Positions 9,612-40,571 of a DNA stretch of 64,000 nucleotides are shown here, one piece after another (within the stretch, counting starts at the first letter, position 1; every line of letters begins with the position of its first letter). The translations under genes and the position numbers were made by a program. The notes under the pieces are model-generated. The model worked only from the letters and a program-made list of their open reading frames with translations, searched no databases and was not told where the DNA came from. Source of the DNA: an uncultured Lentisphaeraceae bacterium (GTDB lineage Bacteria > Verrucomicrobiota > Kiritimatiellia > RFP12 > DVOR01); assembly GCA_949288955.1 (NCBI GenBank), contig CASEMS010000002.1:6490-70489 (forward strand), read 5' to 3'.

Positions 9612-12148
9612 CGCGCGGCCTCCCGGGGCGCCCCGTCCTCCGTCAGCGCGAAGACGCGGAGGCTCTCGAAGCCCTTGTCGTCGATGATCTTCACCGCCAC
9701 CTTCCGGTTCTCCCCCGGCCTGAAGGGCAGGCTCTTCGTCCCCTGATAGGCCCGCAGACGCTCCGGCGCGATCGTCCCCCGCAGGGTCGCCTCCAGCCGC
9801 CGCCAGACATCCGCGCCGGGGAAGAGGCACTGCTCCGGGTTCACGCACCGCCCATCGTAGTTGCCATCGACCATCCACATGGCGATGTTCGCCGCGCCGC
9901 GCGAGGTCATCGTCTGCCGCACCGGGTCGTAATAGTCGAAGCCCAGCACCTCCGCCGTCAGCATCCCCTCCGCGTCACGCACCAAGGCCACGTCCGGCTG
10001 CCCCACCAACGTGAAGCTTTGGTTGCGGAACTGCCGCTTCAGCAGGTCGGTCATCTGCAGATCCGTGTTCATCTGCACGGTCAGGACGCGTGCGTAGCCC
10101 ACCTTGCTGCGTGCGAGCGCCTCCGAGGCCTCGGCCGTGAACTGGAAGGCCGCGAAGACGAGCAGGGCCGGGCGGGGGCGCACGTCGTCCGCCTCGTCCA
10201 GCGCGTTGTGCACCACCGCCAGGCTCATCGGCGCCGACGCGCTCCCCAGGCAGACCAACGCCTCCTGCCCCTCCTCCGTCACCCCCCGCGCATGGAACCA
10301 CGTGTGCGCCCCCGAGACCTCCAGCGACCGGAAGCGCAGCCGCTCCTCCCCCGACCCCGTCCGGATCCCCGAGGCCCGCAGCTCCGCCACCCACTCCTCC
10401 AGATTCCGCCCCGCCGCCATCCCCTCCTCCGGCCGCGCCTCCAGCAACGGCTCGATCACCGGCTCCGGCAGCGCCTCCACCGTGAAGGGGCCCGTAACAC
10501 GCACCCGACCCTTCTCGACGATCGGCCGGTCCCACAGCGTCTCCTCCCGCGACGGCACGCCATTGGCGATGTCGCCCAACATCACGTGCGGCACCGTCTT
10601 GTAGACCAGCCCGCCGTCCACACCCCGCCCCTCGTCCGCCAGCTTGTACCAATCGTAAGCCTGCGTAATCAGCCGCCGCTTCGCCAACGCCAAGGCCACC
10701 CGACTCGTGTCGATCGTGATCCAACGCCGCCCCCACTCCTCCGCCACCACCGCCGTCGTCCCACTCCCGCACGTCGGGTCCAACACCAAGTCCCCCGGAT
10801 CCGTCGTCATCAGGATGCAACGTTGGATGACCTCACGCGATGTCTGGACAACATAGACTTTGGAGTCCGCCCGACTCTGTATGCCGCCGACATCATCCCA
10901 GAGGTTCGAGATACTCATCCAGTTGAAATCGTCCAAGTAACGGACATAGTTTAATGTGTTCGCACTGGCTTCCAAACGATTGGCTGCGGCCAACCGTTGC
11001 AATCCTTCCAATGTCGTCTTAAAGGTGCCATTGCCAGGCGAATATTTCCGCCCCCCAAACTCAAACTCGCGCACATCTCCGTTCCCCGCAGAACGGCGAG
11101 ACGTCAAATTGTCTAACCGATACACTCGGCTTCCCGTTGGCCTATCTTCATAAACGAACTTACTCCCTGTTCGTCTCTCCCACTCACTGATTGGCATACG
11201 CTCCCCAGACTCTAATTCTATGTTACGGTACTTACTCGCCCCCTCTCCCCCGAAAGTCTTCTCCTTGAAGAGCTCGTGATACTTTACCTTTTCCCGGTCC
11301 TTCGCATACCAAAGGAGATAGTCTCCTGCACGATCAAGCGTACCAGACTCGTTTCCACTCGTCGTGGTATAGGAAATCATGGAGACGCAATTGTCGGGGC
11401 CGAAGACCTCATCGAGGAGGCAACGGACGCGGTGGACGTTCTCCATCGAGATTTGGACGAAGATGGAGCCGGTGGGGGCGAGGAGGTCGCGCATGAGGAT
11501 GAGGCGGTCGCGGAGGTAGGAAAGGTAACTGTGGACACCCCATTTCCAGGTATCGCGGAAGGCCGTGACCATCTCCGGCTCGGCGGTGAGGTCCTCGTCC
11601 TTGCCGTCCTTCACGTCGCGCTTGTGGATGGAGGGCATGAAGTTGGAGCCGAACTTGATGCCGTAGGGCGGGTCCATGTAGATGCACTGCACCTGGCCCG
11701 CCAGGCGCTCATGGCGGAGCAGGGCGTTCATCACCAGCAGGGAATCGCCCGCGATCAGGCGGTTGGTCCACTGCATGGTGTGGTTGTAGGCATAGATCTC
11801 CTCCGTGCGCAGACGGCGGCGGTCGGCCTCCGGCAGGCCGAAGAGGTCCAGCTGCACCGGGTCCCGGTCTTGGTCGGCGAAGGTGGCTTTGAGGATGCGC
11901 AGGGGATTGACGGCCTCGTGCTGGTGGATGGTGAAGGTCGGCACCTCCACCGCGTCCTCGCCCTTCTGGAACCACACCAGGCGCGGGATGTCGTGCGCGT
12001 CGATTTCATAGACCTCCGGGGACCCCGTCTCACGGACGCCGCCTGTCTCGTTCGCCGCCGGGAGCACGGCGCGTTTGTGCTCCGGGTGCAGATACGTATC
12101 CGCCGCGTCGCCCTGCGGTTCATCGACACCGTGTCTCTTGCCAGCCAT
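9608..12148 (-). CDS. mod: Type III restriction-modification Mod subunit, beta-class N6-adenine DNA methyltransferase with extended C-terminal domain
   Basis: 846 aa from MAGKRHG (GGAGGG SD upstream; ORF track start at 12241 is an upstream in-frame extension); motif IV DPPYG precedes motif I TCGSGTT (beta order); ~280 aa beyond the typical Mod C-terminus. Confidence 0.9.
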   Translation of the reverse strand: MAGKRHGVDEPQGDAADTYLHPEHKRAVLPAANETGGVRETGSPEVYEIDAHDIPRLVWFQKGEDAVEVPTFTIHQHEAVNPLRILKATFADQDRDPVQLDLFGLPEADRRRLRTEEIYAYNHTMQWTNRLIAGDSLLVMNALLRHERLAGQVQCIYMDPPYGIKFGSNFMPSIHKRDVKDGKDEDLTAEPEMVTAFRDTWKWGVHSYLSYLRDRLILMRDLLAPTGSIFVQISMENVHRVRCLLDEVFGPDNCVSMISYTTTSGNESGTLDRAGDYLLWYAKDREKVKYHELFKEKTFGGEGASKYRNIELESGERMPISEWERRTGSKFVYEDRPTGSRVYRLDNLTSRRSAGNGDVREFEFGGRKYSPGNGTFKTTLEGLQRLAAANRLEASANTLNYVRYLDDFNWMSISNLWDDVGGIQSRADSKVYVVQTSREVIQRCILMTTDPGDLVLDPTCGSGTTAVVAEEWGRRWITIDTSRVALALAKRRLITQAYDWYKLADEGRGVDGGLVYKTVPHVMLGDIANGVPSREETLWDRPIVEKGRVRVTGPFTVEALPEPVIEPLLEARPEEGMAAGRNLEEWVAELRASGIRTGSGEERLRFRSLEVSGAHTWFHARGVTEEGQEALVCLGSASAPMSLAVVHNALDEADDVRPRPALLVFAAFQFTAEASEALARSKVGYARVLTVQMNTDLQMTDLLKRQFRNQSFTLVGQPDVALVRDAEGMLTAEVLGFDYYDPVRQTMTSRGAANIAMWMVDGNYDGRCVNPEQCLFPGADVWRRLEATLRGTIAPERLRAYQGTKSLPFRPGENRKVAVKIIDDKGFESLRVFALTEDGAPREAAR

Positions 12149-12347
12149 AAAGGCGCCCTCCACGTCTGTTCCGGATCGGGCGTCCGCTAAGAGCCGTGAG
12201 AGAAACAGACGGGAGGGCATACGCACCACGGCGCATGCCACACCCGAACGTTTGCTCTCTCAATGTTTAGCGGACTTTGATCCGAGCAAATCATTCGTGC
12301 GTGCTGCACGTTGACCCCTGCGGCTACTCCCGCAGGCGATGTATTGT

Positions 12348-14966: not shown

Positions 14967-15092
14967 CGCGCAATCCTTTCGCTTCGCTCTCAAGAGATGA
15001 CCACTATTATAAGGCAACCATCGCGCCGCGCCACGCACGCCAAGCGCCCAATCCTCCCCCCATCACTGCGGAACGCACCCCACCCCACGGCA

Positions 15093-15128
15093 CAAAAAAA
15101 CCGCCGCAAGCCCTTCGCTTGCGGCGGC
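15093..15128 (-). terminator. Rho-independent terminator of the tRNA-Met/tRNA-Asn unit
   Basis: minus strand: hairpin CCGCCGCAAGCGAAGGGCTTGCGGCGG followed by TTTTTTTG. Confidence 0.7.
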
Positions 15129-15133
15129 CAAGA

Positions 15134-15208
15134 TGGCTCCGAAGGCAGGATTCGAACCTGCGACCAAGTGATTAACAGTCACCTGCGCTACCACTGCGCC
15201 ACTTCGGA
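15134..15208 (-). tRNA. tRNA-Asn (anticodon GTT)
   Basis: 75 nt; cloverleaf TCCGAAG acceptor, anticodon loop CTGTTAA, T-loop GGTTCGAATCC, encoded CCA. Confidence 0.9.
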
Positions 15209-15228
15209 TCGTGGTTGTTTCCCCTCGA

Positions 15229-15304
15229 TGGTAGCGGGTGAGGGGATCGAACCCCCGACACGCGGATTATGATTCCGCTGCTCTACCGACTGAGCTAACC
15301 CGCC
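15229..15304 (-). tRNA. tRNA-Met (anticodon CAT; elongator Met or lysidine-modified Ile2 cannot be distinguished here)
   Basis: 76 nt; acceptor GGCGGGT/ACCCGCT (G1-U72), anticodon loop ATCATAA, T-loop GGTTCGATCC, encoded CCA. Confidence 0.85.
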
Positions 15305-15404
15305 ATGTCGGGAAAACGCCGCATAGAATAGCACATGCCGTCCCCCTCTGCAAGCACTTTTTTTCGTTTTGTGAGAGACCCGAAGCACGACGGGGGGGGG
15401 GAAA

Positions 15405-15850
15405 AACCGCAGATTGCGCGGATTGAGGCGGATTTGGGGGTCGGCTACCGCCGACAGGACTGCCAGGGGGGAGACCACCAAGGACACGAAGGGGTGCACA
15501 GAGGAACACGAAGCACGACGGGGGACACAATCACAAAGGACACAACGGACACAAAGGGGAGCGCGGGCATGGCCCGCGCAGGACGGCCAGGAGGGAACCG
15601 CAGATTGCGCGGATTGAGGCGGATTTTGGGGTCGGCTACCGCCGACAGGACTGCCAGGGGGGAAAGACCACCAAGGGCACGAAGGAGGGCACAGAGGGAC
15701 ACGAAGCACGACGGGGGGACACAATCACAAAGAACACAACGGACACAAAGGGGAGCGCGGGCATGGCCCGCGCAGGACGGCGAGGGAGGAACCGCAGATT
15801 GCGCGGATTGAAGCGGATTTGGGGTCGGCTACCGCCGACAGGACTGCCAG
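15405..15850. repeat. composite tandem repeat, ~191-194 bp unit x2.3 (module A + module B)
   Basis: unit starts at 15405, 15596, 15790 (aaccgcagattgcgcggattgaRgcggattt...); module A has hairpin GTCGGC-TACC-GCCGAC and GCGGATT direct repeats; module B is T-free, purine/C-rich (cacgaag, cacaa motifs), ends in palindrome GCGCGGGC-ATG-GCCCGCGC. Confidence 0.85.
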
Positions 15851-15896
15851 AATGCCTGACAAGTACAGCACGGCGAGAGGGACTCACTTGGGCAGC

Positions 15897-15973
15897 GCGG
15901 GAGGCGAGGGCGGTAGGGAGCGGTCAGCGGGCGAAGCCCGCAGAGCGACCGGCGGAGCCCGCAAGCCTCCCGC
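15897..15973. repeat. 77-nt palindromic module C (copy 2)
   Basis: GCGGGAGGC...GCCTCCCGC terminal inverted repeats; internal GCGGGC-GAA-GCCCGC hairpin. Confidence 0.8.
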
Positions 15974-15980
15974 GCAACGG

Positions 15981-16056
15981 TCAAATCCCCCCAAGCCTCC
16001 AAACCTCCAAACCTCCAAACCTCCAAACTTCCAAACTTCCAAACTTCCAAACTTCC
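15981..16056. repeat. (CCAAACCTC/CCAAACTTC)n 9-mer microsatellite, ~8.5 units
   Basis: ccaagcctcc aaacctcc(aaacctcc)x2 (aaacttcc)x4. Confidence 0.85.
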
Positions 16057-16152
16057 AAACTTCCCGCGCCCCCTTGCGTCTTTGCGGTTCCTTCTAGGAT
16101 AGCACGAACGAGAGACGGGGCACGGCGTTTTTCCTCTGGGGGCTGGCCCTCG

Positions 16153-16220
16153 GAGGATCGGCGGCTGATCCACCCCGGGGCGGCGGCTGATCCACCTTGG
16201 ATTGGCCGCCGATCCAAAGT
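16153..16220. repeat. 22-bp minisatellite family, ~3 units
   Basis: ggaggatcggcggctgatccacccc ggggcggcggctgatccacctt ggattggccgccgatccaaag. Confidence 0.7.
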
Positions 16221-16365
16221 TATCAACAACCCCACCCTCCCGGCGGCCCCCGCGGAAAGCGTTTCGACAAGCGCGCGAGGCGCACATCGGGGGCCTTCGC
16301 GCGCTCCCCTCGCCGGCTGGGCGCGCAGGAGGTTTTCCCCGAAGAGGCCCGGCACGTTCGAGATT

Positions 16366-16394
16366 TTGCGCACGAGGGGCTTTTTTGTTATAGT
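16366..16394 (+). promoter_or_regulatory. sigma70-like promoter TTGCGC-17-TATAGT, predicts leaderless folP mRNA
   Basis: -10 ends 9 nt before the folP ATG at 16404, so the transcript start would be within ~3 nt of the ATG; no SD present. Confidence 0.5.
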
Positions 16395-16403
16395 CTTCTG
16401 CAA

Positions 16404-17252
16404 ATGCAGAAGCGAGCGCCAACGATTTGGGATTGCCGGGGGCGGGCCTTGGAGTTTGGCCCTCCCTTGGTGATGGGCATTCTCAACGTCACGTCGGACT
16501 CCTTCTTCGCGGACAGCCGCGTGGAGGGGGTGCGCGCGGTCGTGGCGCGTGGGGAGGCCTTGCTCGCGGCGGGGGCGGGGATCCTTGACGTGGGGGGGGA
16601 GTCGACGCGCCCGGGGGCCGCGCCGGTCTCGCCGGAGGAGGAGGCGGCGCGGGTGGTGCCGGCGATCCGCGCGTTGGCGGCGGCCTTCCCGGAGGCCGTG
16701 CTTTCGGTGGACACGCGGCACACGGCGGTGGCGCGGGCGGCGGTGGCGGCGGGGGCGCACATCGTGAACGACGTGGCCGGCTGCGCGCCGGAGCCGGGGA
16801 TGTGGGAGTTGGTGGCGGAGACGGGGGCGGGCTACGTGATGACCCATGCGCGCGGGACGCCCGAGACGATGGACGCGCTCACGGACTACGCGGACGTGGT
16901 GGGCGAGGTGGAGGCGGCGCTGCGGGAGGCGACGGCGCGCCTGGTGGCGCTGGGCGCGCGGCGGGGGCAGATCGCCTGGGATCCCGGACTGGGCTTCGCG
17001 AAGACGCACGCGGACTCGTGGCGGCTGTTGGGGGCGACGGCGCGCTTCGCGGCGTCGGGCCACGCGGTGGTGGTCGGGGCCTCGCGCAAACGTTTTCTGG
17101 GGGGGGAGACGCAGGGGCGCGGGCCGGCGAGCGTGGGGGCGGCGCTCTGGGCGGCCTCGCAGGGGGCGGCGGCGGTGCGCGTGCACGACGTGGCGGAGAC
17201 GGCGGAGGCCATGGGGGCCTTCCTCAAGGCAAGGGGGGCGGCGGATGTTTGA
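16404..17252 (+). CDS. folP: dihydropteroate synthase
   Basis: 282 aa from MQKRAPTIW; pterin-binding motifs GILNVTSDSFFADSR, DVGGESTRPGA, NDV; 8-nt overlap with cdaA. Confidence 0.9.
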   Translation: MQKRAPTIWDCRGRALEFGPPLVMGILNVTSDSFFADSRVEGVRAVVARGEALLAAGAGILDVGGESTRPGAAPVSPEEEAARVVPAIRALAAAFPEAVLSVDTRHTAVARAAVAAGAHIVNDVAGCAPEPGMWELVAETGAGYVMTHARGTPETMDALTDYADVVGEVEAALREATARLVALGARRGQIAWDPGLGFAKTHADSWRLLGATARFAASGHAVVVGASRKRFLGGETQGRGPASVGAALWAASQGAAAVRVHDVAETAEAMGAFLKARGAADV

Positions 17253-18096
17253 GTCGTGGTGGCCGAACCTGATGGATCTCTTCCAGATCGCCTTGCTGAC
17301 GGCGGGGGTCTATTATGCCTTCATGGTGCTGAAGGGGACGCGCGCGGCGCAGATGCTGATGGGCGTGGGCGCACTCTTCCTGGCGATCTTCCTGGTAACG
17401 TCCTTCCTGGATCTGGACGTGGTGAACGTGGTGCTGCGCTGGCTCTCGGTGATCCTCTTCCTGGCGCTGCTGGTGGTCTTCCAGCCGGAGCTGCGGCGGG
17501 CGCTGTCGCTCCTGGGGCGCAACACCTACGTGCAGCTCTTGCAGGGGCGCATCCCCGAGACGCCTGCGGAGCTGTTGGTGCGCGTGGCGCGGAGCCTGGC
17601 CACGCGCCGCCTGGGGGCGCTGCTAGTGGTGGAGCGGGCGCAGGCGCTGGATCAGTGGTGCGAGACGGGGACGCGCCTGGACGCGCTGACCAGCGAGGAG
17701 CTCCTCATCAGCATCTTCACCCCGCCCCTGCCGCTGCACGACGGCGCCGTCATCCTGCGGGGCGACCGCGTGCGCGCGGCGCGGTGCATCCTGCCCATCG
17801 ACAACGAGCTGCGCCTGGAGGGCGTGGGCACCCGCCATCGCGCGGCGGTTACCTTCTCGCAGGAGTGCGACGCGCTCATCCTCGTGGTGTCGGAGGAGCG
17901 CGGGCAGATCTCCGTGGCGCGCGAGGGCAACCTCATCCGCAACCTGAGCGACCGCCAGCTGGAGCGCCTGCTGCGCGCGGCCTCCGTGCCGCCGGAGCGC
18001 CAACACGACTTCTACCACGCCGTCTTCGGCGCGCGCCAGGAGGTGCCGTGGTTCCTCAAACCCTTCGCCCGCCGGGAGCCGAAAGGCCATGCGTAA
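17245..18096 (+). CDS. cdaA: diadenylate cyclase CdaA (c-di-AMP synthase, DAC domain, N-terminal TM helices)
   Basis: 283 aa; 3 N-terminal TM segments; DAC motifs DGAVIL and GTRHRAA. Confidence 0.9.
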   Translation: MFESWWPNLMDLFQIALLTAGVYYAFMVLKGTRAAQMLMGVGALFLAIFLVTSFLDLDVVNVVLRWLSVILFLALLVVFQPELRRALSLLGRNTYVQLLQGRIPETPAELLVRVARSLATRRLGALLVVERAQALDQWCETGTRLDALTSEELLISIFTPPLPLHDGAVILRGDRVRAARCILPIDNELRLEGVGTRHRAAVTFSQECDALILVVSEERGQISVAREGNLIRNLSDRQLERLLRAASVPPERQHDFYHAVFGARQEVPWFLKPFARREPKGHA

Positions 18097-19063
18097 CCCC
18101 ATCCCCACCCTCCGCAACAACTGGCCGTGGAAAGTCGCCGCCCTGGCCGTGGCGCTCATCGTCTTCTTCGGCGTGCGCCGCTCCGTCAGCTACACGCAGA
18201 CGCTGACGCTCTCGGTGGAGGCCGAGACGGTGGAGGGCACCCAGGCGCTGATGGGGGTGAGCCCCGGCGTGGTGAGCGTGACCTTCCGCGGCTCGGAGGC
18301 CGCCATCCGCCGCCTGTCCGTGCCGGGCGCCGAGCCGCCGATCGTCCGCCTGCGCCTGCGCCAGCCGCCCGAGGGCGCCTCCTCCGAGCGCATCCGCCTG
18401 ACGCGCCGCGACGTGCTGTGCGACGACGGGCTGCGCGTGGTCTCCATCGAGCCCTCGTCCGTGGTGGCGACCTTCGACACGCGCGCCACCCGGGTCTTCC
18501 AGGTCTCCGAGCCGATCGTCGTCGGCACCCCGACCTTCGGGGAGGTGCAGGTGAGCATCGAGCCCAAGACCGTCGAGGTGACCGGGTCGCGCGCGCTCTT
18601 GGAGGAGTTCGACGAGGCGCGCTCGCGCCTGGCGACCGCCACGCTTGACGTGGCCAACCGCTCCACCGGCTTCCAGACCGTCCTCAAGGTGCTCCCGCCC
18701 GACAGCCGCGCCGGCTGGGTGCTGCGCCCCGACAGCGTGCGCGCCGACGTGCGCATCGTCCGCGAGGATGGCTCGCGCGATTTCCACGAGGTGCCCGTGC
18801 GCGTGCTCCAATCGGCCTCCGGCCGGCGTTACCGCCCGGACTTCCCCACCGTCAAGGTCACCGCCTGGGGGGCGCGCCGCGAGTTGGCGACCATCGACCC
18901 CGCCGGCGTGGTCGCCTTGGTGGAGGAGCGGGAGGATGGCGAGGCCTCGGTGCCGATCGTCGTCCTCCCCTGCTCCAACCGCGTCAGCCGCGTGGAGATC
19001 GACCCGCCGCGGGTGTCCCTGACGCCGGAGCCCCCCGCGGGGCAGGAAGGAGGCGCGCGATGA
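18089..19063 (+). CDS. cdaR: CdaA regulatory protein CdaR (YbbR-like repeat protein)
   Basis: 324 aa; N-terminal TM then YbbR-like beta repeats; position directly after cdaA with 8-nt overlap. Confidence 0.8.
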   Translation: MRNPIPTLRNNWPWKVAALAVALIVFFGVRRSVSYTQTLTLSVEAETVEGTQALMGVSPGVVSVTFRGSEAAIRRLSVPGAEPPIVRLRLRQPPEGASSERIRLTRRDVLCDDGLRVVSIEPSSVVATFDTRATRVFQVSEPIVVGTPTFGEVQVSIEPKTVEVTGSRALLEEFDEARSRLATATLDVANRSTGFQTVLKVLPPDSRAGWVLRPDSVRADVRIVREDGSRDFHEVPVRVLQSASGRRYRPDFPTVKVTAWGARRELATIDPAGVVALVEEREDGEASVPIVVLPCSNRVSRVEIDPPRVSLTPEPPAGQEGGAR

Positions 19064-20445
19064 GGCTCACCGGTGGGCAATGGCGTTGGTTCCTCGGCGC
19101 GGGCCTGTGCGTCGCCCTCGCCGCCGTGGCCGCGGTGCTGGCGGACGCGCTGCTGGCGCGTCTGCGCCCGACGGTCGACCTGAGCGCGTGGGGCGTGGGG
19201 CCGACGCTTTCCGAGCGCGGGCGCGCCACGCTCACCGACACCTCCGGCCTCATCGCCGTGACCTGCGTCCTCCCCGCCGAATCCCCCGCCGCGCTCCCGG
19301 TCGGGCGGTTGCTGCGCGCCTTCGCCCAAGCCTCGCGCGACGCCGCGGGCGCCACCTTCGCCATCGACTACGTCGACCCCCGCATGGAGGTCGGCGCGGC
19401 CACGCGCCTGATGGCCCAAGGCGCCGAGGGCCCCGGCGTGCTTCTGCGCCAGGCGGGGCGCCACGCCTTCGTGCCCGAGAGCGCGCTGCTCTCCCCCCAG
19501 GGCGTCTACGACCCGGCCGAGGCCGAAAGCGCCGTCGCCGCCGCCATCGCCCGCCTCTCCCGCGCCGAAGGGCTGGAGGTGGGGTGGCTGACGGGCCACG
19601 GCGAGCCGGCCTTCGACGGCACCAACCCGCTCTCCGGCTTCTCCGGCCTGCGCCGCGCGTTGGAGAACGAAGGGTGCCGCCTCCGCCCTGTAACATTGGA
19701 CGTGGCGGCGGAGGATGGCGGCCTGCCCGCCTCCGTCGGCGCGCTGATGATCGTCGCCCCATGCTATCCCGTTACCTCCGCCGAGCGGGCCTTCCTGCTT
19801 GACTGGCTGGACCGCGGGGGGCGCCTCTTCTGCGCGCTCCCCGGCGCCGGCGACGCGGGGCTCGGGCCGCTTCTGGAACGGTGGGGCATCCGCTTCGGCA
19901 CGTGGCCGCGCGTCCCCGCCCACCGCATCGAGGGGGATGCGGGGCTCACCGACCTCTTGGCGGCCGACCATCCCGTCACGCGGGAGCTCGCGGGCAAGGC
20001 GCGGTTGGTCTTCGGCGCGCCCCGGGCGTTGGTGCCCGAGACCGTGCGCGGCGTCTCCGTCACCCCCCTCGTCCGGCTGGAGGCCGCGCCGATCCCCGGC
20101 GGCGCGCAGACGAACCAGACTGTGGCCGTGGCCGTGGCCGCCGAGCGCGGGGGCCGCGTGGGCGCGGATCTGGCGTTCCGCCCGGGCCGCGTGGTGGCCG
20201 TGGGCGAGGCGGCCTTCGCCGAGAACCGCTACGTGCTGAACCACGCCACCGCGAACCGCGACTTGGCGGTGAACGCGATCCGTTGGCTCACCGGCCTCTC
20301 CGGGAGCGGCGCGCGTACGGGCGCCGGCGTGCTCCGCGTGGGCGGGGACGCCCATGCCTGGAGGATGGACTTCCTGACGGTGGCGCTGGGCGTGCCGTTC
20401 GCGCTGTGCCTGGCGCTCTGGCTCTTGACACGGAGGCGTGGATGA
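19060..20445 (+). CDS. GldG-like ABC-transporter auxiliary component family protein
   Basis: 461 aa; N- and C-terminal TM anchors; GldG/ABC_transp_aux-like periplasmic domain (NxDLAVNAIRWL near C-term); ATGA overlap with cdaR stop. Confidence 0.65.
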   Translation: MRLTGGQWRWFLGAGLCVALAAVAAVLADALLARLRPTVDLSAWGVGPTLSERGRATLTDTSGLIAVTCVLPAESPAALPVGRLLRAFAQASRDAAGATFAIDYVDPRMEVGAATRLMAQGAEGPGVLLRQAGRHAFVPESALLSPQGVYDPAEAESAVAAAIARLSRAEGLEVGWLTGHGEPAFDGTNPLSGFSGLRRALENEGCRLRPVTLDVAAEDGGLPASVGALMIVAPCYPVTSAERAFLLDWLDRGGRLFCALPGAGDAGLGPLLERWGIRFGTWPRVPAHRIEGDAGLTDLLAADHPVTRELAGKARLVFGAPRALVPETVRGVSVTPLVRLEAAPIPGGAQTNQTVAVAVAAERGGRVGADLAFRPGRVVAVGEAAFAENRYVLNHATANRDLAVNAIRWLTGLSGSGARTGAGVLRVGGDAHAWRMDFLTVALGVPFALCLALWLLTRRRG

Positions 20446-22280
20446 GGTTCGTCCGGAACATCGTGGCGCTGCTGTGCCTGGTGGCGCTCCTCGCCGCCGG
20501 GTTGGTGGCGGAACGTTTCCTGGGGCGGGGGACGGCGTTCGCCGTCGGCGCCCCGCTGATCCCCGTCCCGCCCGAGACGGTCGTGGGGCTGTCGTGGGAC
20601 GTGGAGGCGCCCAACGGCGCGCTCCGCGAGATGACGCTCCGGCGCGAGGGGGAGTTCTGGCGGATGGGCCAGCCCTACCCCGAGACGCTCTGCGACGCCG
20701 CCGCCGTGGCCGACTTCCTGGACGCGCTTCAGGGGCTGCGCGTGCAGGCCCGCCTGGGCCCCGCCGAGGGGAGCGCCTTCCGCGCCGTGCGCAGGCTGGT
20801 CGTCCGCACGCCGGAGATGGCGTTCGCCCGCGGCTTCGGCGGCACGCAGCCGATGGCGTTGGCGCAGACGTTGGCCGAGGCGGATGGCACGTTGGTCTCC
20901 GTGGAGGCGGCGGCGGTGGCGCGTCTGCCGCGCACCGCCGCGACGCTGCGCGCGCAGGCCATCCTGCCCGTCAGCCCAGACCGCGTGGTGGCGTTGGAAT
21001 GGCGCGGGCCGGGGCGGCCTTTCGCCCGTGCGCAACGCCTCCCGGGCGGCAATTGGGAGGTCTCCCGCCCCATCCCCTTCGAGGTCGAGGCCCACGACGC
21101 CGAGCGTGCGCTGACCCTGCTGACACGGGCGGACACCATCAACGCCTACGTCCGCCCCGCGGACGACGCGCCCTTCGCGCCGGACCGCCCGCTCCCGGAG
21201 ACGGCGTTGGACGCCTATGGGTTGGACGAGGAGGCGGCCCTGCGCGTCTCCGTCTACGTGCGCGGGCTGGACGACCCGCTGACGCTGCGTTTCGGCGCCG
21301 CGGACCCCGCCCGCAAGGGGGCGGTCTTCTGCCTGCTCGACGATGGGCGCTCGGTGGTCTCCGTGTCGGCGTCGCTGCCGGATTGCCTGGGGGCGTCGGG
21401 GCCCTTCGTGGCGGAGTTCCAGGAGTTCATGGTGTTGGGCGAGGCGTTGGCGGCGGGGGCCGACCGCCTGACCGTCCGCCTGAGGGGGCAGGAGACGCCC
21501 GTGGAGCTGACCTGGGGGGGCGTGGGGCGCGCCCGGCTGACGCTGCCCACGGCCCTCCCCGCGGACGAGGCGATAACGCGCGACCTCTTCTTAGGGCTGA
21601 CCGCGTTCTCCGGGGAGGTGACCGGCCTGGAGCCGCCCGCCGGCGTGGAACCCCTCGGCTCCGTCACCGTGGCCCAGTCGGACGGCTCCACGCCGCCGGT
21701 CACGCTCGATTTCTATCCCGCGCAGGAGGCCGATCGCCTGTTGGCATGGCGCGCCGACCAAGGGCGGCTCTATCGCGTCGCCCGCGACCCGAAATTGGAG
21801 CTGTTGCTGTCGGAGGGGTTGCAGCATCGCCTGGCGGATCGCACGGTGCTCTCCGTGCCGGCGGGGCGGATCCGCCGCATCGCCGTCCTCCGGCGCGACG
21901 GCGCCCACTGTGCGGCCATCCGGCGCGGCGCCGCGCTGACGTGGGAGACCGAAAGCCCCGCGGGCACCTACGTGGCGACGGAGACCTTGGATGCGTGGCT
22001 GACGCGCTTCGCCGACCTCAAGGCGGGGCGGGTCCTGCGCGACGCGCCCGTCTCCCCCGCCGAATTGCGCCCCTATGGGCTGGATCGGCCGACGACGCGG
22101 CTGACCTTGGACTTGGATGGCGGGGCGGACGGCCTCCGGCGCGTGTTGCTCATCGGCGACCCCGACCCGAAGACCGGCGCGGCGCCCGCCTTGGTGCAGG
22201 GGCGCCCCGTGCTGTATGAGCTGGACGCCGAGACGGTGCGCCTGCTGTCGCGTTGGCCGATGCGGGAGGGCAAGGAATGA
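20442..22280 (+). CDS. DUF4340 domain protein (GldG-associated)
   Basis: 612 aa; N-terminal signal/TM; repeated beta-rich modules typical of DUF4340; conserved GldG–DUF4340 adjacency; ATGA overlap upstream. Confidence 0.6.
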   Translation: MRFVRNIVALLCLVALLAAGLVAERFLGRGTAFAVGAPLIPVPPETVVGLSWDVEAPNGALREMTLRREGEFWRMGQPYPETLCDAAAVADFLDALQGLRVQARLGPAEGSAFRAVRRLVVRTPEMAFARGFGGTQPMALAQTLAEADGTLVSVEAAAVARLPRTAATLRAQAILPVSPDRVVALEWRGPGRPFARAQRLPGGNWEVSRPIPFEVEAHDAERALTLLTRADTINAYVRPADDAPFAPDRPLPETALDAYGLDEEAALRVSVYVRGLDDPLTLRFGAADPARKGAVFCLLDDGRSVVSVSASLPDCLGASGPFVAEFQEFMVLGEALAAGADRLTVRLRGQETPVELTWGGVGRARLTLPTALPADEAITRDLFLGLTAFSGEVTGLEPPAGVEPLGSVTVAQSDGSTPPVTLDFYPAQEADRLLAWRADQGRLYRVARDPKLELLLSEGLQHRLADRTVLSVPAGRIRRIAVLRRDGAHCAAIRRGAALTWETESPAGTYVATETLDAWLTRFADLKAGRVLRDAPVSPAELRPYGLDRPTTRLTLDLDGGADGLRRVLLIGDPDPKTGAAPALVQGRPVLYELDAETVRLLSRWPMREGKE

Positions 22281-23707
22281 ATGGGAGTTGCGTGCCGTTG
22301 GAGGCGCTGAGCGAGGCGGCCTTCCTGACAGACGGGGATTTCCGCGTGGTGGACTGCAACGCGCGGGCGGTGGAACTGCTCCGCGCCCCCTCGCGCGAGG
22401 CCGTCATCGGCCGCGACGCCTCCGACATGCCCAACGACCACGACCTCGCCGCCGAGTTCCCCACCTATCTGCGCGAGCGCCTCACCGCCGTCCCCTTCGT
22501 CTCCTTGGAGAACCACGCCGCGCGCGACGACGGCACCACCTTCGTCGCCGAGGCCGTCCTCCACCGTCTCTCCGACGGCAACGTGCTCATCATGGTGCGC
22601 GACGTCACCGCCCGCGTCGAAAGCCTCCACCGCGCCGAGGAGGCCAACGAGCGTCTCCGCGCCGCCATCCGCGACCGCATGGAGTTCGTCTCCAACGTCT
22701 CGCACGAGCTCCGCACCCCGCTCACCTCGATGTCCTACGCGATCGGCAATATGCTCCGTGGCATTTGCGGCCCCCTCCCCCAGAAGGCGCAGGACTATCT
22801 TGGGCGCTTGCAGGTGGACGTCAAGCGCCTGATGACCACCGTCAACGACATCCTCGACCTCCGCCAGATGGAGAATGGCACCCTGACCCTCCGCAAAAGC
22901 CTCGTGCCCCTCGCCCACCTCCTCGCCGAATCGGCCGACGCCCTCCTCATCCAGGCCCAGGCCAAGCGCCAGACCCTCACCGTCGCCCCGGCCCCCAAGG
23001 AGATTTACGCGGAGGCCGACCGCCACAAAGTGGAGCGCGTCTTCTTCAACATCCTCTCCAACGCCGTCAAGTACACCCCCGAGGGCGGCACCATCCACGC
23101 CTCCATCCGCGCCGAGGGCAAGGACGCCCTCATCCAGGTGGACGACAACGGCATCGGCATCCCCCCCGAGGCCCTCCCCCGCGTCTCCCAGCGTTACTTC
23201 CGCGTGGGCGACCAAGTGGCCGGCACGGGCCTCGGCCTCTCCATCGTCCGCGAGATCGTCGAGCTCCACGGCGGCACGCTCACCATCCAATCGCCCGTGC
23301 CCGGTGACGACCGCGGCACGCGCGTCGCCGTCCGCCTCCCCGCCTGCCCAGGGCCGGAGGTGGTGGTGGTCTCCGGCGACGAGGCGCTCATCGCCGCGCT
23401 CACCCCCCCGCTCACGGATCTGGGGCTGCGCGTCCGCCCCGACCGCGAGGGGCTCGACCTCGCCAAGGGCGGCCAAACCTCCGCGCCCCCGGCCCGCTTC
23501 ATCCTTGACGGCGCCCTCCCCGACTGTTGCCTCAGCGAGCTGATCTGCCAGATCCGCGGCGACGCCCGCCTCGCGCAGACCCCCATCCTCGTGCTCTCCC
23601 CCTTCGCCATCGACGCCAGCCGCCGCGCCGAATACGCCCGGATGCGCGTCGACCTTCGCCCGTGGCCCCTTCCCATCGAGGAGCTCCGGCCCCTCTTCCA
23701 GGCCTGA
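22277..23707 (+). CDS. hybrid sensor histidine kinase (PAS – HisKA – HATPase_c – receiver-like domain)
   Basis: 476 aa from MNGSCVPL; H-box SHELRTPLTS, N/G boxes (NAVKYT, DNGIGI, GTGLGLSI); C-terminal ~120 aa receiver-like; ATGA overlap with upstream stop. Confidence 0.85.
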   Translation: MNGSCVPLEALSEAAFLTDGDFRVVDCNARAVELLRAPSREAVIGRDASDMPNDHDLAAEFPTYLRERLTAVPFVSLENHAARDDGTTFVAEAVLHRLSDGNVLIMVRDVTARVESLHRAEEANERLRAAIRDRMEFVSNVSHELRTPLTSMSYAIGNMLRGICGPLPQKAQDYLGRLQVDVKRLMTTVNDILDLRQMENGTLTLRKSLVPLAHLLAESADALLIQAQAKRQTLTVAPAPKEIYAEADRHKVERVFFNILSNAVKYTPEGGTIHASIRAEGKDALIQVDDNGIGIPPEALPRVSQRYFRVGDQVAGTGLGLSIVREIVELHGGTLTIQSPVPGDDRGTRVAVRLPACPGPEVVVVSGDEALIAALTPPLTDLGLRVRPDREGLDLAKGGQTSAPPARFILDGALPDCCLSELICQIRGDARLAQTPILVLSPFAIDASRRAEYARMRVDLRPWPLPIEELRPLFQA

Positions 23708-23731
23708 CCGCCCCCGCGAGAGACAAAAAAA

Positions 23732-23766
23732 GCCCCGCAAGGATTTCTCCTTGCGGGGCTTTTTGT
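23732..23766 (+). terminator. Rho-independent terminator
   Basis: GCCCCGCAAGGatttctCCTTGCGGGGC + TTTTTG. Confidence 0.75.
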
Positions 23767-23886
23767 CGCTTCGGCGCGGGGGGTTGTCGTCCCATCCCCC
23801 GAGCCTCGGTGCATTGTGGCGTAGGCAGGGGGACAGACAGGCGTTTGGGGATTTGCGGGTCGGGCGGGATGTGGTATTATGCGAGT

Positions 23887-25992
23887 ATGAGAACGTTTGC
23901 ACTTCTTTTGGCCGCCTGCGTGGCGGGCGGGTCGATTATGGCGGCTCCGGCGCGTCATCCCTCCTATGAGCCGAAGGCCCCTGGGGCCGTCGGGCCGGAG
24001 AATCTCTTCCGTGGCGCGAAGGCCACGGCGAAGGATCAGTGGAGCGACCGCGCGCCAGGGCTTGCGGTGAATGGGAACCGCAACCGCAACGACCATTGGG
24101 CGAGTGATTCGCTGCCGGCGTGGCACCAGCTCGATCTGGGGGAGGCAAAGACCTTCGCGTCGGTGCGGGTGGTGCCGTATTTCGGCGATGGGCGCGTCTA
24201 TGGCTTCAAGGTGGAGGGGTCTCTGGACGGGAAGACGTGGGCGATGATCGGGGATCGGACGGCGAACTCGATCGAGGGGGGGCCGGACGGCTTCCTGTTG
24301 GATTTGGACAAGCCGATGACGGCGCGTTACGTGCGGACGACCTTCACGCGGAACACGGCGAACAACGCGGGGCATCTGGTGGAGATCGAGGGGTACGCGG
24401 CGACGCAGGGAGGGGAGCCGCGCCTGATCCCGGTCTCGATGCGGCAGCGGTTCGGCCGGGACACGCTGAGCGGTCTGTCGGCGCCGGAGTCGCCGGAGGT
24501 GGCGTTGCGCGGGTGGCGCGGTGAGCGCGTGGCGGCGCAGGTGCTGGTGGAGGCGCCGGAGGGCTTCAAGGAGCTTCGCGCGGAGCCGTGCGTACTGCGG
24601 TCGGCGGATGGGCGGGAGGTGCCCGTCCGGGTGGATGTGGTGCGTTACACGCTGGGCAACGGGAAGTTGGTGGCGGACATCCTGGATGGGACGGCGCAGA
24701 CGCGCTTCGAGGGCGTGGTGCGGCCGTTCGTGCTGACGGTGGACATCCCGGCGGACGCGCCGGAGTCGGCGGAGGGAACCTTCGCGGTGCGGGTGAACGG
24801 AAAGCGCCTGGCGTGCGCGGTGCGTCTGCGGGCGGACGCGATGGTGCTGCCCCCGCCTTCGGAGTGGTCGGCGCACGTGGATCTGTGGCAGCATCCGGAC
24901 GCGGTGGCACGGTGGCATGACGTGCCGGCGTGGTCGGAGGAGCATTTCCGTCTGCTGAAGCCGTATATGGAGCGCTTGGCCTCGATGGGGCAGAAGACCA
25001 TCACCGCCACGCTCATCGACGAGGCGTGGAATGAGCAGACGTATGACCGTTTCCGCTCGATGGTTGGCATCTCGCGGAAGGCGGATGGCACGTGGGTTTA
25101 CGATTACTCGGTCTTCGACCGTTGGGTGACCTTCATGCGGGAGGAGATCGGGTTGCGCAATGCGACGATCTCGTGCTACAGCATGTTGCCGTGGTCGCTG
25201 ACCTTCCCTTATTATGATGAGGCGCAGGGGCGGACGGTGGCGCCGAAGCTGAATCCTGGGACGGCGGAGTACGAGGCGTTCTGGGGAAGCCTGCTGGAGG
25301 ACTTCGTGCGGCATGTGCGGGCGAAGGGTTGGGAGGGAATCACGCGCATCGCGATGGACGAGCGGCCGGATTACCTCTTCAAGCCGGCGTTGGCGGTGGC
25401 GCGCAAGCACGCGCCGTCGCTGAAGATCGTGGCGGCGTGCAACGCGCCCAGCAACATCACGGCGGACTTCGATGACTGCTCCTATGGCTTCCATATCTGC
25501 GAGCGGCTGGTGAAGTTGGCCGCCGAGCGCCGCGCGCAGGGGAAGCAGACGACCTTCTACGTCTGTTGTAGCCCGGCGCGCCCCAACACCTTCATGGCCT
25601 CCGGTTTGGCGGAGAGCGAGTGGCTCTTCCCGATGGCGGCGCATTACGGGCTGGATGGGATGCTGCGCTGGACCTTCCAGTCGTGGGTCGAGAATCCGCT
25701 CGTCTGCCAGGACTACACCACGTGGCCCAGCGGCGACACGTCGCTGATCTATCCCGGGAACCGCCCGAGCCTGCGTTGGGAGGGGCTGCGCAACGGAATC
25801 GAGACCTTCGAGAAGGTGCGGCTCCTGCGTGCGGCGGCCAAGGCCAAGGGGAAACCCGAGGCCATCGCCCCCGTGGAGGCGGCGCTCAAGGCCTTCACCG
25901 TCGCCCGTGGCGGCAAGGCGGGCAACCCTTACGAGGCGGATCTGATTGCGTTGGATCGGGCCTTGGAGGCGGCGACCGAGGCGCTCCGATGA
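23887..25992 (+). CDS. secreted glycoside hydrolase-like protein with N-terminal F5/8 type C (discoidin) domain and DUF4091/GH123-like catalytic region
   Basis: 701 aa; signal peptide MRTFALLLAACVAGG; discoidin motifs (WQ/HQLDLG...RYVR); the remainder resembles DUF4091-type hydrolases. Confidence 0.5.
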   Translation: MRTFALLLAACVAGGSIMAAPARHPSYEPKAPGAVGPENLFRGAKATAKDQWSDRAPGLAVNGNRNRNDHWASDSLPAWHQLDLGEAKTFASVRVVPYFGDGRVYGFKVEGSLDGKTWAMIGDRTANSIEGGPDGFLLDLDKPMTARYVRTTFTRNTANNAGHLVEIEGYAATQGGEPRLIPVSMRQRFGRDTLSGLSAPESPEVALRGWRGERVAAQVLVEAPEGFKELRAEPCVLRSADGREVPVRVDVVRYTLGNGKLVADILDGTAQTRFEGVVRPFVLTVDIPADAPESAEGTFAVRVNGKRLACAVRLRADAMVLPPPSEWSAHVDLWQHPDAVARWHDVPAWSEEHFRLLKPYMERLASMGQKTITATLIDEAWNEQTYDRFRSMVGISRKADGTWVYDYSVFDRWVTFMREEIGLRNATISCYSMLPWSLTFPYYDEAQGRTVAPKLNPGTAEYEAFWGSLLEDFVRHVRAKGWEGITRIAMDERPDYLFKPALAVARKHAPSLKIVAACNAPSNITADFDDCSYGFHICERLVKLAAERRAQGKQTTFYVCCSPARPNTFMASGLAESEWLFPMAAHYGLDGMLRWTFQSWVENPLVCQDYTTWPSGDTSLIYPGNRPSLRWEGLRNGIETFEKVRLLRAAAKAKGKPEAIAPVEAALKAFTVARGGKAGNPYEADLIALDRALEAATEALR

Positions 25993-27158: not shown

Positions 27159-29138
27159 ATGAAGCAAGGTTGGCGTTGGTTCGGCACGCAGGACCCCATC
27201 TCGCTGAAGGAAATCCGCCAGGCGGGCGTCACCGACGTGGTGGCCGCCCTCTACGAGCGCAAGTGCGGCGAGGTGTGGCCCATCGAGGAAATCCGCGCGC
27301 GGCAGGAGGCCGTCCGCGCCGCGGGCATGGAGTGGTCGGTCATCGAGAGCGTGCCGGTGCATGAGAGCGTCAAGACGCGCACCGGCGACTTCCAGACCTA
27401 CATCGAGAACTACAAGCAGACCCTCCGCAACCTGGCCGCCTGCGGCATCAAGGTGGTCTGCTACAACTTCATGCCCATCCTCGATTGGACGCGCAGCCAG
27501 TTGGACTACGCCCTCCCCGACGGCTCCAGCGTGCTGAACTTCGATGAGGTGGCCGTCGCCGCCTTTGACCTCCACATCCTCAAGCGTCCCGGTGCCGAAA
27601 AGGATTATGACGACGCCCTCCGCGCCAAGGCCAAGGCTTGGTTCGAGGCCGCCGACCCCGCCCTCATCGAGAAGACCTCCAAGGGCATCCTCCTCGGCCT
27701 CCCCGGCACGGTCGACGATCTCACCGTCGAAGGCTTCCGCGACCTGCTCAAGACCTACGAAGGCATCGACGACGCCACGCTCCGCGCCAACCTCTACGCC
27801 TTCCTCAACGAGCTGGCCCCCCTCTGCGAGGAGCTCGGCGTGCGCATGGCCATCCACCCCGACGACCCCCCGCGCTCCCTCTTCGGTCTCCCCCGCATCC
27901 TCTCCGACGCCGACGACATCCGCGAGATGTGCGCCAAGGTGCCCAGCGAGAACATGGGCCTGACCCTCTGCACCGGCTCCCTCGGCGGCGGCCGCGCCAA
28001 CGATGAGGTCGCCATCTTCCGCGAGTTCGCCCGCCGCGTCCACTTCGTCCACTTCCGCAACGTCGTCTACGCCGACGGCGGCACCTTCCACGAGTCCGGC
28101 TGCCACCTTTGCGGCAAGGTTGATATGCCCCGCCTCATGCGCATTCTCCTCGATGAGGAGGCCCGCCGCGGCGAGCAGATCGTCGTCCGCCCCGACCACG
28201 GCCGCCTCATGGAGATCGACAAAGGCCGCACCTGCTACAGCGGTTACTCCTACGGCGGGCGCCTCGTCGGCCTCGCCGAGCTCCGCGGGCTTGAATATGG
28301 CCTCATCCACGGCAGCGACCTCGATGGCAAGGTCATCGTCGTCACCGGCGCCGCCGGCGTCCTCTGCTCCGTGATGACCGAGGATTTCCTCCGCCACGGC
28401 GCCAAGGTCGCCCTCCTTGACCTCCACGGCGAGAAGGCCGAGGCCTTCGCCGCCGCCCTCGCCGCCAAGGGCCTCACCGAGACCCTCCCCCTCGGCGCCA
28501 ACGTCCTCGACCGTGCCTCCCTTGAGGCCGCGCGCGACGCCGTCCTCGCCAAGTGGGGCCGCGTGGACATCCTCGTCAACGGCGCCGGCGGCAACCACCC
28601 CAAGGGCACCTGCGCCGCCGAGCAGATGACCCCCGACGCCAAGCTGGAGGAGACCTTCTTCGGCCTCGACATCGAGGGCTTCGAGTTCGTCAACCGCCTC
28701 AACTTCATCGGCACGCTGCTCCCCTCGCAGGTCTTCGCCAAGGAGATGCTCGCCACCGGCGGTTCCATCGTGAACATCTCCTCCATGGCCGCCACCCAGC
28801 CCCTCACCAAGGTCGCCGCCTACGCCGCCGCCAAGGCCTCCATCGAGAACTTCACCCGCTGGCTCGCCACCCACCTCGCGCCCATGGGCATCCGCGTCAA
28901 CGCCATCGCCCCCGGCTTCTTCATCACCAACCAGAACCGCTTCCTCATGCTGGAGCAGGACGGCAAGACCCTCACCCCCCGCGGACACAAGGTCATCGCC
29001 AAGACGCCCATGCGCAAGTTCGGCCAACCCAGCGACCTCTGCGGCGCCGTGCGCTACCTCGTCTCCGACGACGCCTCCTTCGTCACCGGCATTGTCATCC
29101 CGATCGACGGCGGGTTCCTGGCCTACTCCGGCGTCTGA
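27159..29138 (+). CDS. uxuA: fusion protein: mannonate dehydratase (UxuA) + short-chain dehydrogenase/reductase (UxuB-type D-mannonate oxidoreductase)
   Basis: 659 aa; N-terminal ~360 aa UxuA (MKQGWRWFG..., TIM-barrel xylose-isomerase-like); C-terminal SDR with TGAAGxxG Rossmann (VVTGAAGVLC), catalytic S...YxxxK (AAYAAAK). Confidence 0.85.
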   Translation: MKQGWRWFGTQDPISLKEIRQAGVTDVVAALYERKCGEVWPIEEIRARQEAVRAAGMEWSVIESVPVHESVKTRTGDFQTYIENYKQTLRNLAACGIKVVCYNFMPILDWTRSQLDYALPDGSSVLNFDEVAVAAFDLHILKRPGAEKDYDDALRAKAKAWFEAADPALIEKTSKGILLGLPGTVDDLTVEGFRDLLKTYEGIDDATLRANLYAFLNELAPLCEELGVRMAIHPDDPPRSLFGLPRILSDADDIREMCAKVPSENMGLTLCTGSLGGGRANDEVAIFREFARRVHFVHFRNVVYADGGTFHESGCHLCGKVDMPRLMRILLDEEARRGEQIVVRPDHGRLMEIDKGRTCYSGYSYGGRLVGLAELRGLEYGLIHGSDLDGKVIVVTGAAGVLCSVMTEDFLRHGAKVALLDLHGEKAEAFAAALAAKGLTETLPLGANVLDRASLEAARDAVLAKWGRVDILVNGAGGNHPKGTCAAEQMTPDAKLEETFFGLDIEGFEFVNRLNFIGTLLPSQVFAKEMLATGGSIVNISSMAATQPLTKVAAYAAAKASIENFTRWLATHLAPMGIRVNAIAPGFFITNQNRFLMLEQDGKTLTPRGHKVIAKTPMRKFGQPSDLCGAVRYLVSDDASFVTGIVIPIDGGFLAYSGV

Positions 29139-29170: not shown

Positions 29171-29290
29171 TGGAGACTTGGATGCTTGGCCTGCGCTCCG
29201 CGCCCCCCGGCGTCCCGCAGGAGTTCCAAACAGCCAAGCCTCCAAACCTCCAAGCCTCCAAACTTCCAATCAGCCAAGCCCCCAAACTTC
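29160..29290. repeat. 9-mer (CCAAGCCTC/CCAAACTTC) repeat block with one inverted copy followed by direct copies
   Basis: ggaagtttggagacttggatgcttggc (inverted) ... ccaaacagccaagcctccaaacctccaagcctccaaacttccaatcagccaagcccccaaacttcc (direct). Confidence 0.7.
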
Positions 29291-29293
29291 CCC

Positions 29294-32829: not shown

Positions 32830-32974
32830 TGTCACTCCTTGGCTGTTGCGCTGGAAGACGCCATGTCCGCCCTTACGCACACCATGAATGCTAGCAAAGC
32901 CCGCCCCTCAAAGCAAGCCCTTTTTCCCGATTGTGGCCGGGGGAATAAAGAAAACGGGAAACACCAAGCACGCT

Positions 32975-40561: not shown

Positions 40562-40571
40562 CGAGGCACGC

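Follow-up and report, generated by a model that had tools for sequence, protein, structure and literature searches.

A predicted folP-cdaA-cdaR operon joined to a GldG/DUF4340 pair and a histidine kinase, with no adjacent ABC transporter genes, in gut bacteria of the PVC group

Why should proteins of the GldG and DUF4340 type, which normally accompany ATP-binding cassette (ABC) exporters, be encoded directly behind the genes for cyclic di-AMP (c-di-AMP) synthesis? The question is raised by a stretch of 64,000 nucleotides (64 kb; hereafter the window) from an uncultured Lentisphaeraceae bacterium (contig CASEMS010000002.1 of assembly GCA_949288955.1), with a GC content of about 69%. Between positions 16404 and 23707 of the window, six genes follow one another on the plus strand in the order folP, cdaA, cdaR, a GldG-like gene, a DUF4340 gene and the gene of a PAS histidine kinase with a receiver-like tail. 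To our knowledge, the control of CdaA and CdaR is poorly understood outside the Firmicutes; GldG and DUF4340 are widespread, and we know of no molecular function for either. An original prediction, made from the window alone, took the six genes as one operon and derived from their physical coupling an envelope-associated complex centred on CdaA. The analysis reported here suggests another answer: the locus probably unites, under one predicted promoter, the housekeeping block folP-cdaA-cdaR with a lineage-specific module of GldG-like protein, DUF4340 protein and kinase that is orphaned of its ABC transporter. The tie of this module to c-di-AMP, argued for by conserved adjacency alone, is unproven.

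The six open reading frames (ORFs) overlap successively by 8, 8, 4, 4 and 4 nucleotides (nt). These are the overlaps that had been claimed, and coordinates and frames agreed when they were rechecked. Possible overlaps occur as well in about nine of the roughly 30 other same-strand neighbour pairs of the window. Overlaps per se are not special; it is the run of five in a row, and its conservation in relatives, that stands out. The flanks hold unrelated genes: upstream, on the minus strand, those of tRNA-Met, tRNA-Asn and an alpha-N-acetylglucosaminidase of the GH89 type, and downstream that of a GH123 glycosidase.

The neighbourhood of the genes was surveyed in relatives. One genome per GTDB species yielded 20 loci, a scan of metagenomes with a GldG profile yielded six more, all of them from close relatives, and contig look-ups were added (individual loci are cited below by L numbers). 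The six-gene order was complete in 18 further loci, and about ten more are consistent with it, being cut only by contig ends. In every locus with enough flanking sequence, the genes of folP, cdaA, cdaR, GldG, DUF4340 and the kinase stood in this order on one strand. The order is thus conserved, and the objection that no relative keeps it falls away. The records are gut and other animal-associated metagenome-assembled genomes, named Kiritimatiellae, Lentisphaeraceae or Candidatus Spyradenecus, and all belong to the Planctomycetes-Verrucomicrobia-Chlamydiae (PVC) group. For the GldG-like protein 61 cluster representatives were detectable, and the named ones are labelled Kiritimatiellia or Kiritimatiellae. 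The loci span GC contents of 45 to 69%. Identities are lowest in L001 and L033, the most distant members, at 48-52% (folP), 41-44% (CdaR), about 41% (GldG) and about 30% (DUF4340). The overlap of cdaR with the GldG-like gene measures 4 nt in nearly all loci, spacers being present in L030 and L031 only. These two loci keep the order, but the junctions cdaA/cdaR and DUF4340/kinase are widened by spacers of 234-280 nt and the GldG gene is preceded by one of 68-70 nt (the larger ones at 533-812 and 5139-5372 of L030 and at 8630-8909 of L031); mis-called starts are possible there. A search of the enlarged spacers for extended −10 boxes gave none in either locus.

The last three genes of the unit can also stand elsewhere. 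In L002 and L036 the order is cysS-tmk-GldG-DUF4340-kinase, with GldG proteins 37-38% identical to that of the window and, in L036, an overlap of 4 nt between tmk and the GldG gene. The kinases are orthologous, that of L002 being 46% identical over nearly its full length, receiver tail included, and that of L036 42% identical over the PAS region. Because the same three genes are found behind cysS-tmk, the GldG-like gene, the DUF4340 gene and the kinase gene are a portable trio, a module in its own right that is attached to cysS-tmk in a sister lineage.

Where this trio may come from is indicated by the next relatives (L003/L004, L005/L006 and L035; 32-34% identity), in which genes of an ABC ATPase and/or an ABC-2 permease lie directly upstream of GldG-DUF4340 and the kinase is absent. 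In a neighbour-joining tree of GldG, the six-gene and tmk-linked clades come together as sister to the ABC-linked L003, L005 and L035 and are nested within ordinary GldG proteins. An exhaustive profile search with GldG through 1.84 billion representatives gave a similar picture: only about six representatives (at 50% identity) scored above 399 bits, and canonical relatives reached no more than 300 bits. Of the best 150 matches, about 39 carry an N-terminal extension of about 250 residues, which was an ABC-2 permease wherever it was checked. When odd-length proteins from these 150 were checked by Pfam, permease fusions turned up together with a single LysR fusion, which is probably an artefact of gene calling, and no fusion of GldG to DAC, YbbR or kinase domains was seen among them. 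Since the closest outgroups keep ATPase and permease upstream, or have the permease fused to GldG, the pair would descend from accessory subunits of ABC-2 exporters. Searches for an ABC ATPase or a GldF-like permease gave nothing in the window (Pfam and tblastn) or up to 10 kb from the trio loci. The pair of ATPase and permease genes that is encoded with GldG, or fused to it, in exporters of the GldA/GldF/GldG type is thus missing from the window and from the flanks of the trio loci in relatives, as the original prediction had it for the window.

The position of ruvB gives a weak hint on the route of descent. RuvB of the canonical locus L003 is 78% identical to that of the window, and RuvB of the six-gene locus L033 is 90% identical; L003 adjoins ruvB, and the operon of L033 lies four genes from it. 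As a fairly close relative with the canonical set and the operon of L033 are both near ruvB, the GldG/DUF4340 pair of the operon may have descended in place from a canonical set, and may not be an extra paralogue. It was further noted that a block of ruvB, a gene for a very large tetratricopeptide-repeat protein and a gene for a MurD-like ligase is shared by the window (39545-45806) and L033 (8071-14325). In L033 it is the immediate neighbour of the six-gene operon, which it follows on the other strand, and in the window it is 16 kb away and inverted.

All parts of the operon belong to known families. Family calls were judged by the curated cut-offs of Pfam and of NCBIfam, and transmembrane (TM) segments were called by hydropathy. 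The first cistron, folP (16404-17252, +; 282 aa), encodes a dihydropteroate synthase by Pterin_bind (232 bits, 7.9e-69) and by TIGR01496 (DHPS), which gave 263.5 bits against a cut-off of 162.6. The product of cdaA (17245-18096, +; 283 aa) passes the Pfam cut-offs for DAC (126.9 bits, 4e-37) and CdaA_N (28.6 bits, 1.6e-6), and comes within 0.4 bits of the cut-off of the NCBIfam equivalog TIGR00159 (188.4 against 188.8). It has an N-terminal TM domain, and the motifs DGA and RHR lie at residues 166-168 and 197-199 respectively. By a DAC domain with both motifs and by the N-terminal membrane domain, it is predicted to be a membrane-bound diadenylate cyclase of the CdaA type. The product of cdaR (18089-19063, +; 324 aa) matches YbbR in one detected repeat (27.7 bits, 3.3e-6, cut-off 22.3) and has a single N-terminal TM helix at residues 11-29, the remainder being extracytoplasmic. 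The gene adjoins cdaA in all relatives. The TM helix, the YbbR domain and the position directly 3' of cdaA identify it, at the level of sequence, as CdaR. In Firmicutes (Bacillus subtilis, Listeria, and Staphylococcus as dacA-ybbR-glmM) cdaA and cdaR form an operon with glmM. The locus is not of this cdaA-cdaR-glmM type: the gene after cdaR is the GldG-like one, and no phosphoglucomutase-type Pfam match, as expected of GlmM, was found after cdaR or among the ORFs of the window that were scanned.

The GldG-like protein (19060-20445, +; 461 aa) matches ABC_transp_aux (PF09822) with 40.2 bits (3.1e-10, cut-off 34.7), the alignment covering positions 3-115 of the 288 of the profile, and also DUF4350. 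TM helices at residues 14-32 and 438-456 flank a periplasmic domain of the GIFT type, a pattern that is found in canonical relatives too. In an AlphaFold2 model (pLDDT 85), a central alpha/beta domain stands between two long helices at the termini. With this model, Foldseek retrieved the N-domain (GIFT) of IFT52 (3e-9), OST48 of the human oligosaccharyltransferase complex (chain 6s7t_G) and ThuA/GATase1-like proteins. A sequence search of the PDB retrieved IFT52 only, and no bacterial GldG structure. The relationship of GldG with IFT52 is already known. The score above threshold, the modelled GIFT-type fold and the two membrane anchors together place the protein in the GldG/ABC_transp_aux family.

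The DUF4340 protein (20442-22280, +; 612 aa) matches DUF4340 (PF14238) at residues 501-599 with 59.7 bits (5.5e-16, cut-off 25) and has an N-terminal TM helix at residues 4-22. Weak but recurring internal matches to the profile at about residues 70, 200, 360 and 495 suggest that the protein is probably made of about four tandem periplasmic DUF4340-like domains. Its gene lies directly 3' of the GldG-like gene here and in all relatives, and residues 59-602 align with the DUF4340 partner of canonical loci. By the score and by the partner gene, it is assigned to the DUF4340 family. A sequence search of the PDB with this protein gave no matches, and a single-sequence AlphaFold2 model was unusable (pLDDT 35). 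Both the GldG-like and the DUF4340 protein expose only a few residues, as very short stubs, to the cytoplasm.

The kinase (22277-23707, +; 476 aa) has PAS, HisKA (57.9 bits) and HATPase_c (96.7 bits) domains, with H143 in the motif SHELRTPL, and is by these features predicted to be a sensor histidine kinase of the HisKA family. The NCBIfam equivalogs all scored far under their cut-offs and placed it in no named kinase family, and no TM segment was detected by hydropathy, so that the protein appears to be soluble. Its tail (residues 356-476; nt 23342-23704) had been called receiver-like, and comparison with relatives bears this out. Fifteen orthologous tails align well; their profile matches receiver domains of the PDB, RpaA (8.8e-7) and many others among them, and gave an hhalign probability of 93% against CheY/Spo0F/PhoB. 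The L002 orthologue has a sub-threshold match to Response_reg of Pfam (E 0.002). Asp411, which aligns with D57 of CheY, is invariant among the orthologous tails and the Ser/Thr position is mostly retained. The Lys is lost, Pro or a different amino acid standing in its place, and loss of the first acidic residue leaves the acidic pair incomplete. The tail is, as judged from these alignments, a degenerate receiver domain and the architecture that of a hybrid kinase, in which the tail may be phosphorylated. No canonical receiver or response-regulator ORF was found in the window or in any locus flank, with OmpR as control at 2.6e-34; the cognate response-regulator gene expected near a two-component kinase was thus not seen there.

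We then ask whether the six genes would be transcribed together. An extended −10 box, TGTTATAGT, lies at 16386-16394 (motif match) and ends 9 nt before the ATG of folP. Together with a weak −35-like box (TTGCGC, 16366-16371), which was assigned by eye, and a 17-nt spacer, it makes up the predicted promoter (16366-16394, +). A generic scan for consensus sigma-70 sites found none in 15000-24500, because the −35 box is weak; the scan was replaced by the extended −10 motif, which was spotted by eye and then checked by its conservation. Of 22 distinct relatives, 17 have a TGnTAnnnT box 6-10 nt upstream of the start codon of folP. Given the distance of 9 nt between box and start codon, the mRNA of this single promoter is probably leaderless or nearly so. 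It can be seen that folP is without a Shine-Dalgarno site and the five internal genes carry GGAGG-like sites just upstream. The only other plus-strand TGnTAnnnT match inside the unit (17393) is weak. At the other end a hairpin terminator (23727-23764, without strand assignment; 17-bp stem) starts 20 nt past the stop codon of the kinase gene, and the 90 nt downstream of this stop fold at −53 kcal/mol. With an A-run before it and a T-run after it, the hairpin is predicted to be usable in both directions. The terminator scan listed two weak hairpins within the unit, at 17291 and 19988, each of 5-7 pairs and within coding sequence. One promoter with a leaderless start, and one terminator, as first proposed, stand as a prediction with comparative support from the 17 relatives that keep the box.

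The same box recurs in other parts of the window. TGnTAnnnT was matched 24 times against 10.4 expected, and none of 100 shuffled sequences reached 24. Extended −10 boxes precede the start codons of the GH123 gene, ruvB, a prepilin-type gene and a Ser/Thr kinase gene by 6-9 nt and tRNA genes by about 20 nt; the sites are 23872-23880, 39528-39536, 52143-52151, 32888-32896 (minus strand), 49380, 54999 and 60822 (minus strand). Since the motif is enriched and is placed just before other genes and tRNAs, extended −10 promoters and leaderless mRNAs appear to be a wide habit of this genome.

Taken together, these observations would fit the following scheme. The six genes would be transcribed from the single extended −10 promoter as one leaderless mRNA and translated through overlapping stop and start codons. 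One part of the unit would supply folP, a housekeeping folate enzyme, together with the membrane-bound c-di-AMP synthase CdaA and its extracytoplasmic YbbR partner CdaR. The other would supply the GldG-like protein (two TM helices and a periplasmic GIFT domain), the DUF4340 protein (one TM helix and about four periplasmic repeats) and the soluble PAS kinase with its degenerate receiver. The GldG-like/DUF4340 pair, derived from accessory subunits of an ABC-2 exporter, would have lost the adjacent ABC genes and gained the kinase, and would since have moved as a unit. The two proteins may form a periplasmic scaffold anchored in the inner membrane, the state of which the kinase may report or set. 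Attachment to cdaA-cdaR might mean co-expression with other envelope-facing proteins and not an obligatory mechanistic tie to c-di-AMP.

Several points weigh against this reading of two joined modules. The adjacency of cdaR and the GldG-like gene is kept over a large divergence, even where spacers have grown, as in L030 and L031, and an order so kept could reflect a real functional tie. The TM helices of the GldG-like protein, the DUF4340 protein and CdaR are conserved about equally with the soluble parts, which suggests specific membrane partners. The survey of CdaA covers the clade only, the best 120 matches being all at least 69% identical and within it, and the GldG tree is a neighbour-joining tree that carries no support values.

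A first group of alternatives takes the coupling to c-di-AMP genes at face value. CdaA, CdaR, the GldG-like protein, the DUF4340 protein and the kinase might form one envelope-associated signalling complex, as in the original prediction. In it, the periplasmic state would tune c-di-AMP synthesis via the YbbR, GIFT and DUF4340 domains, or the c-di-AMP state would be relayed to the kinase, and the trio would hold the regulatory place that GlmM has downstream of cdaA-cdaR in Firmicutes. Such a complex would agree with the order being kept in every clade member seen, and the 4-nt cdaR/GldG overlap in nearly all, over the full range of GC contents and down to 30% identity of DUF4340. It would agree also with the membrane anchoring of four of the five proteins other than folP, with their conserved TM helices, and with the failure to find a phosphoglucomutase-type gene. 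However, the trio occurs behind tmk without cdaA in L002 and L036, and in L036 with an overlap to the upstream gene as tight as that to cdaR. In addition, folP is coupled just as tightly and has no known tie to c-di-AMP; because of this, overlap and order do not single out functional partners here. In the ftsH-folP-glmM operon of E. coli, folP stands among envelope genes without a known functional tie, so that adjacency to folP is no evidence of shared function. Overlapping junctions are moreover common in this genome, the odd-length proteins checked offered no fusion of GldG with DAC, YbbR or kinase domains, and a kinase without a membrane segment would have to be reached by a relay through very short cytoplasmic stubs. 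A CdaA-centred complex does not follow from the coupling, and we consider it unlikely. The bolder proposal, that the GldG-like/DUF4340 pair and the PAS-kinase-receiver protein were recruited as regulators of CdaA-CdaR, in an envelope-anchored complex that sets c-di-AMP by periplasmic or cell-wall state, seems quite doubtful. If true, the recruited trio would be the diderm counterpart of GlmM control of CdaA, and its replacement.

Alternatively, the GldG-like and DUF4340 proteins may still serve an ABC-2 exporter that is encoded elsewhere, with the kinase as an added regulator or a bystander and the position in the operon incidental. The nearest outgroups are all ABC-linked or permease-fused, and the TM helices are still conserved. 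That the components can be unlinked is seen in L035, L039 and L040, where no ATPase adjoins the permease or the permease-GldG fusion; gldA is separate from gldF-gldG in Flavobacterium johnsoniae as well. A kinase can also accompany an intact transporter, since in L037 a cytoplasmic GAF kinase lies directly upstream of a canonical ABC-GldFG-DUF4340 set. Against such an exporter stand the failure to find its genes in the 64 kb of the window or up to 10 kb from any trio locus, and the stability of the ABC-less state, always with the kinase, across two clades. It is a serious alternative, though rather less likely than not. Finally, the six genes might be neighbours by chance, not co-transcribed, with internal promoters driving the trio. 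The spacers of 68-280 nt between some genes of L030 and L031 and the two weak internal hairpins could be read in this way, but all junctions of the window overlap and leave no room for a terminator, and the hairpins are short and lie within coding sequence. Moreover, one weak extra extended −10 match is all that the unit offers, and the order is conserved in about 28 loci. It seems highly improbable that the adjacency is fortuitous.

Compared with the Firmicutes operon, the locus likewise has a membrane-bound CdaA followed by a single-pass YbbR protein CdaR, co-transcribed (as predicted here) with further envelope-related genes. It differs in that folP comes first, that three genes without a known link to c-di-AMP follow cdaR, and that the organism belongs to the PVC group. 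In the E. coli ftsH-folP-glmM operon folP likewise belongs to an operon of envelope genes, as it does at the head of the present one, but the downstream genes differ. With GldA/GldF/GldG of F. johnsoniae and with sets of the type ABC_tran - ABC2_membrane - ABC_transp_aux - DUF4340, the locus shares full-length homologues of the accessory pair, their topology and the GIFT fold, and its nearest outgroups carry exactly the canonical four-gene set. Unlike these sets, it has no adjacent ATPase or permease, a PAS kinase invariably accompanies the pair, housekeeping genes lie upstream, and the family is very narrow (the roughly six representatives above). Control of a kinase by membrane accessory proteins of the same operon is familiar from WalK-YycH-YycI of Bacillus and from Bce-type pairs of ABC transporter and kinase. 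By analogy only, the two membrane-anchored extracytoplasmic proteins co-encoded with the present kinase could provide a sensory input. WalK and BceS contact their partners through TM helices, whereas the kinase here has none, and the accessory proteins are unrelated in sequence.

In the literature searched, DUF4340 was mentioned, and no paper on its function was found; an essential DUF4340 domain has been reported in Verrucomicrobium spinosum (PMC12283558). Nor did the search find a paper that links GldG or DUF4340 with c-di-AMP, cdaA with folP, or Kiritimatiellae with c-di-AMP. Consistent with the earlier claim that the coupling is new, neither the ABC-less trio of GldG, DUF4340 and kinase nor its constant attachment to cdaA-cdaR within one PVC clade of the gut seems to have been described. 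The finding by itself overturns nothing. What it describes is a GldG/DUF4340 pair that has parted from its ABC transporter, is invariably accompanied by a soluble kinase and, in one clade, stands firmly beside cdaA-cdaR. It also shows that GldG and DUF4340 can exist without an adjacent transporter. The proteins are a defined set on which interaction and c-di-AMP assays could be run, and the finding may serve as a hypothesis generator for uncultured gut bacteria of the Kiritimatiellae type.

Upstream of folP, a non-coding, A-skewed spacer of 1.1 kb (15305-16403) reaches back to tRNA-Met. It contains two tandem repeats, one of 194 bp (2.3 copies with 94% match, 15405-15850) and one of 8 bp, TCCAAACT (8.4 copies, 15998-16064), and no ORF with coding-like GC content at third codon positions (GC3) was found in it. 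The octamer tract was considered as a regulatory array of the operon and rejected, being a dispersed intergenic repeat, (CCAARCYT)n, of this genome and two relatives. It was matched 11 times in the window against 0 expected, with sites at 6733-6752, 15991-16058 and 29234-29269 of the window, at 7276, 19813 and 20309 of L011 and at 1208 and 12382 of L014.

In L037 (GCA_033612695.1, 782-10010), a gene for a GAF-GAF histidine kinase lies 7 nt upstream of an ABC ATPase gene, which is followed by a permease/GldG fusion and DUF4340. Immediately ahead, on the other strand, come genes for a K+ transporter of the Kup type and for a KdpD-like kinase (DUF4118); this is a single case. Among the roles of c-di-AMP is one in K+ homeostasis, which makes these potassium genes curious.

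Three other features of the window are recorded here. At 6873-12220 on the minus strand, an ORF of 870 aa, whose product has an N6_N4 DNA methylase domain, adjoins one for a protein of about 1000 aa without a Pfam match, with a possible 4-nt overlap between them; the two may be a restriction-modification or other defence-type pair. The region 29270-30640 has no clean ORF, only short minus-strand pieces of very high GC3 (29593-29853 and 30283-30636), and may be a frameshifted or degraded gene. At 27159-29138 on the plus strand, a single ORF of 659 aa fuses mannonate dehydratase (UxuA) to a short-chain dehydrogenase, within a hexuronate/KDPG-aldolase gene group.

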